A DNA stretch of 64,000 nucleotides from Candidatus Amesbacteria bacterium (GCA_963736875.1 CAVTQH010000004.1:187899-251898), one strand, 5' to 3'; counted from the stretch's first letter, positions 36,542 through 39,593 are shown. Program-made: numbers and translations. The notes: generated by a model from the letters alone, not told the origin.

Positions 36542-37895
36542 TCAGGAATCGATAGTTACTTCACCTTTTTTGGGTGGCGTCCCCGATACCGGTAAACTGA
36601 ACCAGAATGTTGTTCCCTTGTTTTCTTCACTGGCAAACCAGATTTTTCCCTTGGAAGAATCAATTATTGCCTTTACCAGATACAATCCCAGTCCTGTCCC
36701 GTCAGCATCCGCTCTTTGGGCATTTTCAGCTCTGAAAAACCTTTCAAACATTTTACCGTAGTCCGCTTTGGGTATTCCGCATCCGTTATCCGTCACCTGG
36801 GAAATAATTTCATCTTCCTTACGCGAAATAAATACCGAAATTTCCCCGTTGGCGGGGGTATATTTTATCGCATTGGACAACAGATTCAGATACACCTGCC
36901 TGATCAATTTGGGATCAACTTTTATTTGCGGCAGTTCCGGATGTACGCTGACCACCATATTTATTTTCTTTTCAATAATTTTCGGATGCAACTCCTTCAA
37001 TATCTGATTTACCAATTCCCCCAAATCCGTAGGTACCGGATCAATTTTTATTCTTCCCGATTCAATCCTGGAAATATTCAGAAGCGAATTCACCAGCTCG
37101 ATCATTCTCTCATTGGATTGGTATAAACATTGGACAAATTCGGTCTGCTCCGGGTTCAATTGACCGGCATCACCCCCGGAAAGCATTTCCGTATACCATT
37201 TAATTGCAGATAGCGGGGTCCTGAGCTGATGCGAAGCCAGAGAAACAAACTCTGTTTTTGCCCTGTCAATTTCTCTTTCCCGGGTGATATCCCGAAATAC
37301 CGCAATTACACCTACCGTCTTCCCGTTTAACAATCACCGGAGCTGCAGTTGTCCCGACGGAAAACTTGGTTCCGTCACGCCGGACATAATAATTGGTGCT
37401 GCTGGCTATCGGTTGTCCCGTAATCAGTACTTTTTGGGTGGCTCTTCTCTCGGCCGGAATCGCGTTTCCCTTTTCATCCGCCAACGGTGCCACTTCAAAC
37501 CATTTTTTACCCACCACTTCTTCATTCTTCCATCCCACCATCATTTCCGCCTGCTTGTTAATCATTTCGACGTTACCGTTTCTGTCAGTCACTACAATTC
37601 CCTCACCCAGACAACCCAACAAGGCAATATCCTTCGCCCGTTTTTCTTCCATCTCTTCCGTCCGTTTTTTCAAAAGATCCCTGCTTATTCTCAGCTGGCC
37701 CAGACTTCTCAGTGTCAATACCGCTAAAGCAACATTAAAAATATTTATTCCCAGTATTATTTCCCAGCTGTACAAGTTCGCGGAGCGATAATACAGGTAA
37801 ACCAGAATCGGAAAAATCACCACTGATAATGCCAGCCACAACCACCCTGACCATATTTTTCGTTCTTTCCCGACTTTTCTCTCCTTTTCCTCCAT
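36542..37895 (-). CDS. PAS-domain sensor histidine kinase, split by an apparent frameshift near 37325-37335
   Basis: N-terminal ORF (37266..37895) has 2 TM plus a PAS domain. C-terminal ORF (36542..37333) has H-box …[17 protein letters not shown]… and HATPase_c. The frames join at …TTAAPV|[18 protein letters not shown]…. Confidence 0.7.
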
Positions 37896-37924: not shown

Positions 37925-38446
37925 TTAATAACCCCTCAATTTACGCCCTTTCCAGATTTTATCCAACCCCAACCATAATGATGTATTTGGAACTCTCTCC
38001 TTTAAGTCTATAGTAAAGTCCGAAATTACCCTCCGGCACCAGTTTTTGGTTTCTTCCGGAGAAATTCCTCTTTCTCCGGCTCTGGCCAAATATACCGCAA
38101 AATTATACAAATCAGCCGCAGACAGGGAAAAATCCAATCCGTGTCTTAAGAGAAAAAAGTGGGTAAATAAAACGGCCATCCGTTTATTACCGTTAGCAAA
38201 AACATGACCGCGTACCAGCTGATTCAAATAGGCGGATGCAGCTTCCAAAACCGACGAATTCAGATACTTCCCGCCGTATGTTTGTCTGACAGATTCGATT
38301 ACTGCCTCGAGTTTCCCCGGATATCGGGTATCAAACGGCGGGATCGGTTCTCCGTACTCTACTCTTTTTCTGAAAATCTCGAAGATACGGCCGCAGATTA
38401 CCGGGTTTAGCCAATGCTTCGGGATTTTTGTAAGCTTTGGTGTCAT
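37925..38446 (-). CDS. Doc (death-on-curing) family toxin, Fic-fold
   Basis: Doc-type motif HxFx(D/N)GNKR is present as …RGHVFANGNKRMAV…. The protein aligns along its length to the phage P1 Doc core. Confidence 0.8.
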   Translation of the reverse strand: MTPKLTKIPKHWLNPVICGRIFEIFRKRVEYGEPIPPFDTRYPGKLEAVIESVRQTYGGKYLNSSVLEAASAYLNQLVRGHVFANGNKRMAVLFTHFFLLRHGLDFSLSAADLYNFAVYLARAGERGISPEETKNWCRRVISDFTIDLKERVPNTSLWLGLDKIWKGRKLRGY

Positions 38447-38576
38447 ACTCCTCTAACCATTTATAGGTATCCCCATACTTCTTCATACTATATTCCACCT
38501 CTTTCAAAACCGAAACATCCCCCGCCATCAGTCGGCGGATAAGATCATTCACTTTCTGCACAATCCTTTTTGCCAT
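38331..38576 (-). CDS. Hypothetical 81-aa protein upstream of doc (possible antitoxin); its 3' 116 nt overlap the doc ORF in another frame
   Basis: The N-terminal ~50 residues look protein-like (MAKRIVQKVNDLIRRLMAGDVSVLKEVEYSMKKYGDTYKWLEEY…). The overlapping tail is Arg-rich and may be read-through caused by an indel. Confidence 0.3.
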   Translation of the reverse strand: MAKRIVQKVNDLIRRLMAGDVSVLKEVEYSMKKYGDTYKWLEEYDTKAYKNPEALAKPGNLRPYLRDFQKKSRVRRTDPAV

Positions 38577-38616
38577 ACGCGTATTGTATCAGAAACACCG
38601 GAACTTTATATCCGCT

Positions 38617-38898
38617 TCAATTAATTACTTTCTTTCCGGTTTGTACCCGGCCTTCGGCCACATCGATTTGTTTACCCAAAGCCTGCAGAAACTTCTTGGC
38701 CTGGCTCCTGCTCATACCGATACGGGAAACTATCCGCCATTGCCGGGTTGTCCCCACTCTCTGACAGATATCCAGAACTATGCCGTCCTCGTTCGAACTG
38801 ATTACAATATTATCGGTATACAAAATCGGTGTGGTATCCAGATTCACATTCAAAGACACCGCATTCAGATCATTATCATTTTTATCCGTTTTATCCAT
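38617..38898 (-). CDS. DUF3467-like small protein
   Basis: …IVISSNEDGIVLDICQRVG…RIVSRIGMSRSQAKKFLQALGKQI… fits the DUF3467 pattern (…HS..EFVLDF… / …SRI.LTP.HAKRLL.AL…). Confidence 0.5.
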   Translation of the reverse strand: MDKTDKNDNDLNAVSLNVNLDTTPILYTDNIVISSNEDGIVLDICQRVGTTRQWRIVSRIGMSRSQAKKFLQALGKQIDVAEGRVQTGKKVIN

Positions 38899-38978: not shown

Positions 38979-39593
38979 TTAATTATTAGTTTTCGACCTT
39001 GCGAATGCTTTTTTAATGGAAATTCCGAGTTTGAACTGCACTAATATTGTGATTATTATACAAACAACAAAAAGGTAAATCGGAAAACCAACACTGGCCA
39101 GAGAGTATTCTTTAATGGCAAATAAGGTGATTACTGCAGAAATTACCGTTGTAAAGTAGGGCCATCCGCTTTCGGTTTCAGGATTATTATATGACTTTAT
39201 AATCGTTGGTAATGAAGCTAATCCGTCAGCAACAATGCTAAATATAATCGCAATACTACCGGATTTTGTTATCTGCCAAAGAATAAGACCAATAATTGAT
39301 AATGCTCCGCAGGATAAATCAAACTTATTCAGTTTCCATTCAGCTTGTTTGTTAAAAAATGAGGCAGTAAATATCAATAGAGGTTCTATTCCCGCAACCA
39401 AAGTAGTAAGTGTCAATAATAATCCGATCCCCTGTTTAATTTGGGCAGCAAATGCGATTAGCGGGGCAAATGACCATAAAAGAAATGATACTTTATTCGG
39501 TTTTACTTTTCCCTTAACAGTATCAATCAAGTAACTCATACCTCCTATGGCTACGATTACTGAACCGAGAATTGTAAATCGTTCGTCAATCAT
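38979..39593 (-). CDS. Integral membrane protein (about 6 TM), unknown function
   Basis: Hydrophobic 204-aa ORF, 4-nt overlap with rarA. Confidence 0.5.
   Translation of the reverse strand: MIDERFTILGSVIVAIGGMSYLIDTVKGKVKPNKVSFLLWSFAPLIAFAAQIKQGIGLLLTLTTLVAGIEPLLIFTASFFNKQAEWKLNKFDLSCGALSIIGLILWQITKSGSIAIIFSIVADGLASLPTIIKSYNNPETESGWPYFTTVISAVITLFAIKEYSLASVGFPIYLFVVCIIITILVQFKLGISIKKAFARSKTNN

Follow-up and report, generated by a model that had tools for sequence, protein, structure and literature searches.

We find that a Doc toxin gene in a Candidatus Amesbacteria bacterium has its first 116 nucleotides (nt) read in a second frame as the end of the gene for its presumed antitoxin. The pair lies on the minus strand of a 64,000-nt window (the whole stretch of DNA that was analysed; GCA_963736875.1 CAVTQH010000004.1:187899-251898). 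Directly upstream of doc is an open reading frame (ORF) of 81 amino acids (aa), whose frame is one base upstream of the doc frame. Its last 38 codons and its stop lie inside doc, and its Y44 codon (TAT) takes in the first two bases of the doc ATG. An earlier reading of the window, made from the sequence alone, had noted an overlap of about 116 nt in another phase, and positions 38446..38331 indeed amount to 116 nt. Judged by comparison with relatives, the overlap encodes two proteins under purifying selection, with Doc the more strongly constrained, and dual coding is very probably real.

We interpret the pair as a two-gene Doc toxin–antitoxin (TA) module, in which an antitoxin without a helix-turn-helix (HTH) domain carries a tail overprinted on the 5' end of the toxin gene, and translation would determine how much of each protein is made relative to the other. 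We place the probability of this reading at about 0.65. Its parts differ in strength: the small protein is probably the antitoxin, while a specific role for its tail falls somewhat short of even odds. Textbook TA pairs have short overlaps (1–4 nt) and DNA-binding antitoxins, and the whole subfamily to which the window's pair belongs breaks both rules. The elements of the module, all on the minus strand, are as follows.

37925..38446, minus: doc toxin gene, 173 aa; Fic-fold core at about residues 15–139 and a C-terminal extension of about 30 aa
38180..38206, minus: Doc active-site motif HVFANGNKR, residues 81–89
38331..38446, minus: dual-coding overlap, 116 nt; Doc residues 1–39, and small-protein residues 44–81 with the stop
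38331..38576, minus: small ORF, 81 aa, candidate antitoxin without HTH; N-terminal helix, conserved core helix and overprinted tail
38445..38501, minus: core helix, small-protein residues 26–44, EVEYSMKKYGDTYKWLEEY; the most conserved segment of the small protein
38583..38591, minus: extended -10 promoter-like element TG-A-TACAAT, ending 6 nt before the ATG of the small ORF

The toxin is a Doc protein

The sequence-only reading had identified the 173-aa protein as a Doc toxin with the motif HVFANGNKR and a resemblance to P1 Doc, and this identification holds. The protein scores 39.5 bits against the Pfam family Fic (PF02661; cut-off 24) and 55 bits against TIGR01550 (DOC_P1; cut-off 38.65), the latter covering residues 20–139. 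A sequence search matches it to P1 Doc (3K33, E 2e-5). The Doc-type active-site motif is HxFx(D/N)(A/G)NKR, which HVFANGNKR fits, and N85, G86, N87, K88 and R89 do not vary among 30 homologues. An AlphaFold2 model of the protein has a mean confidence (predicted local distance difference test, pLDDT) of 89.3, and its best matches in the PDB are the P1 Doc structures 3K33 and 3DD7, with template-modelling (TM) scores of 0.71–0.76 normalised to the target. Profiles, motif, sequence match and predicted fold thus all identify a genuine Doc. Doc toxins phosphorylate EF-Tu and arrest growth, which would be the presumed activity of this protein.

The profile match begins at about residue 15, which makes the ATG at 38446 a sensible start for doc. 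The overlap with the small ORF encodes a part of Doc that is confidently modelled, comprising a predicted helix at residues 15–25 and the conserved EPIPPF loop. At the other end, the C-terminal extension (37925..38026, residues ~140–173; ..SLWLGLDKIWKGRKLRGY) is confined to the closest relatives (P0002, P0003 and P0007) and is predicted, with low confidence, to form a helix that is basic and rich in aromatic residues.

The overlap is kept throughout a subfamily of doc loci

We compared doc loci from five contigs (L001–L005), 160 further loci from genomes and metagenomes, and three obtained via exact look-up. These fall into two classes: a broad family in which doc is partnered by a gene with an HTH_17 domain, and the window's own subfamily. 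The latter comprises 19 loci, with Doc proteins 42–84% identical to the window's. In 19/19 a co-oriented small ORF lies directly upstream of doc, and in all of these it reads into doc, by 68–119 nt. The partner in this subfamily lacks an HTH domain; about 44 of its residues are encoded ahead of the doc ATG, and a tail of 22–38 aa then runs over the first 23–39 codons of the toxin. The Doc N-terminus is eight residues longer than in the broad family (MTKKL..TP..WL.L..C..IF).

Five of the loci, L001–L005, come from independent short-read metagenome contigs, and in these the 81-aa ORF, its start, its stop and the 116-nt overlap are identical in layout to the window. The TGA of the small ORF falls within the doc codons for P-P-F-D, as it does in the window. 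Doc is 84% identical to the window's in L002–L005 and more diverged in L001. The unusual antitoxin arrangement that the sequence-only reading had offered as one of two possibilities is therefore supported by the homologous loci, and it extends to a whole subfamily with both frames selected.

The subfamily is found mainly in Patescibacteria genomes of the Microgenomates type, the labels of the relatives being Amesbacteria, Blackburnbacteria, Microgenomates and Patescibacteria. Five metagenome-assembled genomes with the module (L007 and L009–L012), one of them on a 725-kb contig, are titled 'uncultured Pseudomonadales' or 'Gammaproteobacteria', labels that are unconfirmed; these may be wrong, or the host range of the module may be wider.

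The small ORF was left uncalled by gene callers in every syntenic contig that we fetched. Where it was called, the toxin suffered: P0045 is the Doc of L009 shortened by about 35 residues, starting at MPPFDD just past the stop of the small ORF. Prodigal limits overlaps between genes on the same strand to 60 nt, which would explain both the uncalled small ORF and the shortened Doc. As a result, these toxins appear orphan or truncated in databases, and surveys of TA systems in Patescibacteria will miss the partner.

Both frames of the overlap are under selection

Upstream of doc, variation in the small ORF follows its own codon positions (position 3, 0.61; position 1, 0.44; position 2, 0.22), and this periodicity shows that the ORF is protein-coding. 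Within the overlap, we examined avoidance of stop codons by holding the Doc amino-acid sequence fixed and resampling synonymous codons. For the window, the second frame stayed open for at least 116 nt in 1.7% of the trials. All 18 non-redundant relatives are open for at least 68 nt, with per-sequence probabilities of 0.05–0.56 and a product of ~1e-12 if the sequences were independent; because they are related this value overstates the significance, although their synonymous sites are for the most part saturated. Among 139 canonical doc genes, 30% have this frame open for at least 68 nt, versus 19/19 loci of the subfamily.

Synonymous change in doc was measured as the fraction of codons that differ among those encoding identical Doc residues, in the overlap versus downstream of it. 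Differences numbered 2/33 versus 30/92 between the window and L002, 4/23 versus 16/29 between the window and L001, and 4/24 versus 18/29 between L001 and L002. Close pairs thus exhibit a 3- to 5-fold suppression of synonymous change, confined to the overlap. In 47 independent pairs of non-overlapping doc genes, used as a control, there was no such effect at the 5' end (0.53 versus 0.50). The pattern of variation by codon position is also flattened: Doc position 2, which is the wobble position of the tail, is more variable in the overlap than downstream (0.43 versus 0.27), and Doc position 3 is less so (0.57 versus 0.66).

Amino-acid conservation in the second frame was then compared with what Doc conservation alone would impose, over the first 22 tail residues of 13 diverged loci. 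The observed identity was 0.329 versus an expected 0.215 +/- 0.010 (z 11.7), and four control windows downstream of the overlap gave z values of -0.5 to 1.0. In the reciprocal test, Doc-frame identity was 0.453 versus 0.213 expected (z 19.3), with a control upstream of doc at z 1.7.

The small protein and its probable kinship with HTH_17-type antitoxins

The 81-aa protein has no match in Pfam, NCBIfam or PADLOC, and no DNA-binding domain (HTH, ribbon-helix-helix, AbrB or Phd) was found in it with these three collections. Type II antitoxins typically, though not always, carry such a domain, which serves autoregulation. The remark in the sequence-only reading that the upstream ORF is not recognisably Phd/YefM-like was borne out by the profile searches: the window protein and three diverged relatives gave no match to Phd/YefM or any other family in Pfam or NCBIfam at E values up to 1, and the relatives drew a blank in PADLOC as well. 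A PDB profile search with the small-protein family returned spurious matches to repeat proteins only. AlphaFold models the protein as all-helical (helices 2–50, 52–55 and 58–72, then a loose end; pLDDT 73), with no globular domain.

The conserved helix, VEYSMKKYGDTYKWLEEY, has the consensus V.YS.KKY..TY..LE.YD, and S30, Y34, Y38, L41 and E42 are invariant across the 19 loci. The tail that follows includes, for example, NPEALAKPGNLRPYLR. A word-indexed profile search yielded 27 called homologues of the small protein, none of them named and none with a Pfam domain. An exhaustive hidden Markov model (HMM) search of 1.84 billion representatives found 112 homologues of 36–96 aa, 97 of which match through the tail. 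In one of the representatives, P0150 (96 aa), the first 55 residues resemble a sigma-70 N-terminus (..GEITYDEINDILPEKL..) and the last 40 form a typical tail (EEYDKKSAKEPKILAESGRLRG..), perhaps because the assembly is chimeric or the locus has recombined.

In the broad family, Doc is 30–40% identical to the window's and its upstream partner is a protein of about 85 aa with an N-terminal HTH_17 domain. The partner stops at -12 to +14 nt from the doc ATG, most often with a 1- or 4-nt overlap, and its last helix, ..KTVKEYGETLKLLGKE, lies directly before that ATG. These canonical partners score 32–41 bits against PF12728, where the small proteins score nothing; in a PDB profile search a canonical antitoxin matched a phage excisionase only, and weakly. 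We aligned the profile of the 19 small proteins with that of 116 HTH_17 antitoxins using hhalign, which placed residues 18–43 on residues 63–88 of 89 (E 1.3e-4). This tentative match to the C-terminal helix V..TVKEYGETLKLLGKE at the doc start covers 26 columns, has a probability of 54% and is in exact positional correspondence: the last residue of the canonical antitoxin aligns with Y44, whose codon straddles the doc ATG. Two members of the family, P0162 and P0174 (the latter with ..AVKRTVSDYKSTIKFLGLYDKGK..), look intermediate. These comparisons support descent of the small protein from an HTH_17-type antitoxin that would have lost its DNA-binding domain and its stop at the doc start, and gained a tail. 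A TGA in the third frame, within ATGA at the doc start, is present in 18/19 loci of the subfamily and may be a relic of the older arrangement; since it is forced by the second codon of Doc, it is no proof of one.

Expression signals and a proposed mechanism

A TAnnnT hexamer stands exactly 6 nt before the ATG of the small ORF in 11/19 loci, against a background of about 1 match per position, and 8 of these 11 hexamers carry a TG extension. A Shine–Dalgarno (SD)-like motif precedes the small ORF in 1/19 loci and is absent in the window. With a -10 element at this distance, the 5' end of the transcript would fall on the A of the ATG, which suggests a leaderless transcript for the small ORF. There is precedent among the TA operons of M. 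tuberculosis, which are leaderless in 32/37 pairs (PMC3898074). The hexamer also stands exactly 6 nt before the start in 24/114 HTH_17 antitoxin genes (among L014–L165), a rough fraction because the start calls are automatic; transcription without a leader may be widespread among antitoxin genes of these lineages. The doc ATG, for its part, is directly preceded by GAAAAA or GAGGAG, too close for normal SD spacing.

These features suggest how the module might operate. The core helix would bind and neutralise Doc, in the manner of the C-terminal helix of Phd. With no DNA-binding domain in the small protein, we propose that the antitoxin:toxin ratio is set by translation instead of transcriptional autorepression. 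The small ORF would be translated efficiently from a leaderless mRNA, and its ribosomes would cross a weak, occluded doc start, keeping toxin synthesis low. The tail, with its predicted helix at residues 58–72, could add contacts to Doc or tune stability. A bolder version, which we consider doubtful, is that the tail was born de novo by overprinting, is functional, whether by touching Doc or by governing antitoxin stability, and, together with the leaderless start and the ribosome traffic, replaces the lost autoregulation. If true, this would define a class of translationally interlocked type II TA systems, in which toxin and antitoxin are genetically inseparable.

Alternative explanations

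Several observations weigh against our interpretation. The length of the tail is variable (22–38 aa), and at one locus, L170 (632..1205, coverage ~2x), the small ORF ends early (..LLEKSDQ, TAA), just past the core helix. There the usual doc ATG is mutated, Doc begins at an upstream ATG, and the tail frame is still open past the stop; the locus may be in decay or mis-sequenced, or it may show that the tail can be dispensed with. In distantly related pairs the suppression of synonymous change grows weaker. The alignment to HTH_17 antitoxins spans only 26 columns at a probability of only 54%. The core motif (AVKYSVKKYGKAYKMLEKYD) also occurs in small proteins without an adjacent doc (L169 378..602 and the P0177 locus; two checked), so that the core helix is perhaps not Doc-specific and belongs to a more general module. 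Finally, the interpretation does not account for translation of Doc with no well-spaced SD and with ribosomes crossing the doc start.

Some of these points would be expected if the real antitoxin functionally ended at about residue 44 and the tail were useless read-through, conserved only by way of the Doc N-terminus. Variable tails, the stop of L170 just after the core helix, weak suppression in distant pairs and the 30% of canonical doc genes that have the second frame open for at least 68 nt by chance all fit such neutral read-through. It is nevertheless improbable, since second-frame identity exceeds the level imposed by Doc (z 11.7, with four flat control windows), synonymous change is suppressed 3- to 5-fold in close pairs in the overlap only, stops are avoided in 19/19 loci, and Doc position 2, the wobble position of the tail, varies more in the overlap than downstream (0.43 versus 0.27). 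A different objection concedes that the frame is translated and denies that its product is an antitoxin: the small ORF could be a regulatory upstream ORF or leader peptide, or have another role beside a Doc that lacks a protein antitoxin. It would resemble the mini-ORF that controls toxin translation in axe-txe (PMC8708949). The absence of a DNA-binding domain and of any family match, the core motif away from doc, and ribosomes that must cross the doc start without a well-spaced SD are compatible with this. What speaks for an antitoxin is that an amino-acid sequence, and not mere translation, is conserved in 112 representatives, and that the core helix can be aligned to the last helix of the presumed HTH_17 antitoxins, both being placed alike with respect to the doc ATG. 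Moreover, an unneutralised Doc is normally lethal to the cell. We regard a non-antitoxin role as unlikely, though less so than neutral read-through.

The remaining alternatives deny the second protein or the separateness of the two genes. The sequence-only reading had suggested that an assembly indel removed the antitoxin stop, in which case the long overlap would not be biological. It is true that the histidine kinase gene next door has one inserted nucleotide when compared with L002, and that the third-frame TGA shares bases with the doc ATG (ATGA), an arrangement also seen in canonical pairs. A 1-nt indel restoring a canonical ATGA stop/start is therefore possible on paper; we rejected it on the comparative data. 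L001–L005 share the ORF, start, stop and overlap, 19 loci overlap by 68–119 nt, 97 database representatives include the tail, and the tail is under selection. An overlap kept in independent assemblies is not an assembly error, and we give this explanation next to no chance. Synonymous suppression alone cannot tell constraint on RNA from constraint on protein, so that an RNA element in the overlap, such as a structure gating doc translation, could be its source. RNAalifold, however, found no conserved pairs among the 19 sequences, the fold of the window itself is unremarkable (z -1.25), and the constraint shows up in one particular frame, as conserved amino acids and avoided stops; an RNA element is accordingly very unlikely to be the explanation. 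Programmed +1 frameshifting, which would fuse the small ORF to doc and yield a single antitoxin–toxin protein, draws on the one-base difference between the frames and on an A-rich run at the junction (GAAAAAT ATG) in several loci. Against it, the loci share no conserved slippery motif (the window reads GAGGAGTATG, L007 GAGAAGTATG), the window has an in-frame TAG in the doc frame two codons before the doc ATG, and the tail past the junction is itself conserved as protein. Such a fusion is more improbable still than the RNA element.

The small proteins that carry the core motif away from doc have it at the N-terminus, with unrelated tails, and are encoded among very short genes, some with CxxC pairs. 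They may be phage or mobile-element genes, possibly anti-Doc decoys.

Relation to known systems

The module resembles P1 Phd-Doc (3K33, 3DD7) in the toxin fold and the motif HxFx(D/N)(A/G)NKR, and in having a small co-oriented upstream gene as the presumed neutraliser, which would probably act through a C-terminal-type helix. It differs in that the partner is not Phd/YefM and has no DNA-binding domain, and in an out-of-frame overlap of 116 nt where P1 has one of a few nucleotides. Also close are the uncharacterised HTH_17 (excisionase-type)-Doc pairs, which are common in Patescibacteria, Omnitrophota and other uncultured lineages. These have a homologous Doc (30–40% identity), an antitoxin whose last helix aligns with the core helix directly before the doc ATG, and, in 24/114, a -10 box 6 nt before the start. 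Their antitoxins of about 85 aa stop near the doc ATG, whereas the window's subfamily is HTH-less and reads on for 68–119 nt.

Two further comparisons are informative. Overprinted, or dual-coding, genes are a reviewed concept in viruses (PMC8227390); as there, a second-frame segment lies within an older gene, both frames are selected, and the older gene shows suppressed synonymous change. Here, in contrast, the setting is a cellular TA module, and the overprinted segment forms the tail of the protein that partners the toxin; it is no unrelated accessory protein. In type II systems, toxin translation can be controlled through coupling or an overlapping ribosome-binding site (PMC5535158) or through a mini-ORF, as in axe-txe. 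The window's upstream frame likewise covers the toxin initiation region, so that the two translations should interact. Known upstream frames end at or before the toxin start, in contrast to the 68–119 nt inside the toxin gene found here, and the window's upstream gene is probably leaderless.

In the literature searched, which was incomplete, we did not find this arrangement described. The Doc toxin and HTH_17-Doc pairs are known; what appears new, on the sequence comparisons, is the long out-of-frame overlap combined with loss of the DNA-binding domain and a probable leaderless start. The subfamily offers a clean bacterial case in which overprinting has given rise to a segment of protein and selection can be measured in both frames, and a natural test of how a toxin:antitoxin ratio may be set without a repressor domain.

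Genomic neighbourhood

One further gene precedes the pair, and all neighbours share the minus strand.

38617..38898, minus: DUF3467-like gene, 93 aa; first in transcription order
Gap of 40 nt between the DUF3467-like gene and the 81-aa ORF

The sequence-only reading had the DUF3467 gene following the pair; in the direction of transcription it lies upstream. Its product reaches 21.8 bits in Pfam, short of the cut-off (25). The gene is kept only in the closest relatives and is thus not part of the module; a role as a third component was rejected for this reason.

Downstream of doc come a histidine kinase gene split by a frameshift and then response regulators. The PAS/HisKA kinase is divided between two ORFs on the minus strand, 37266..37895 and 36542..37333, with a junction near 37330, and the split is due to a single base that is absent from the intact 452-aa orthologue in L002 (CCGGTGATTGTTAAAC versus CCGGTGGTT-TTAAAC). 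What had been described as a degraded patch of response regulator and histidine kinase genes therefore comes down, for the kinase, to a single 1-nt insertion; either the gene is a true pseudogene or the base is an error of assembly. Nor did the suggestion of an accessory or mobile context find support. L002–L004 share the order RarA, DUF3467-like gene, small ORF, Doc, histidine kinase, response regulator; GC content around the pair is unremarkable, and an Rfam scan of the window returned one tRNA only, 29 kb away. In L003 and L004 the DUF3467-like gene directly follows RarA/MgsA; in the window, a gene for a 204-aa membrane protein (38979..39593) is inserted between the two.

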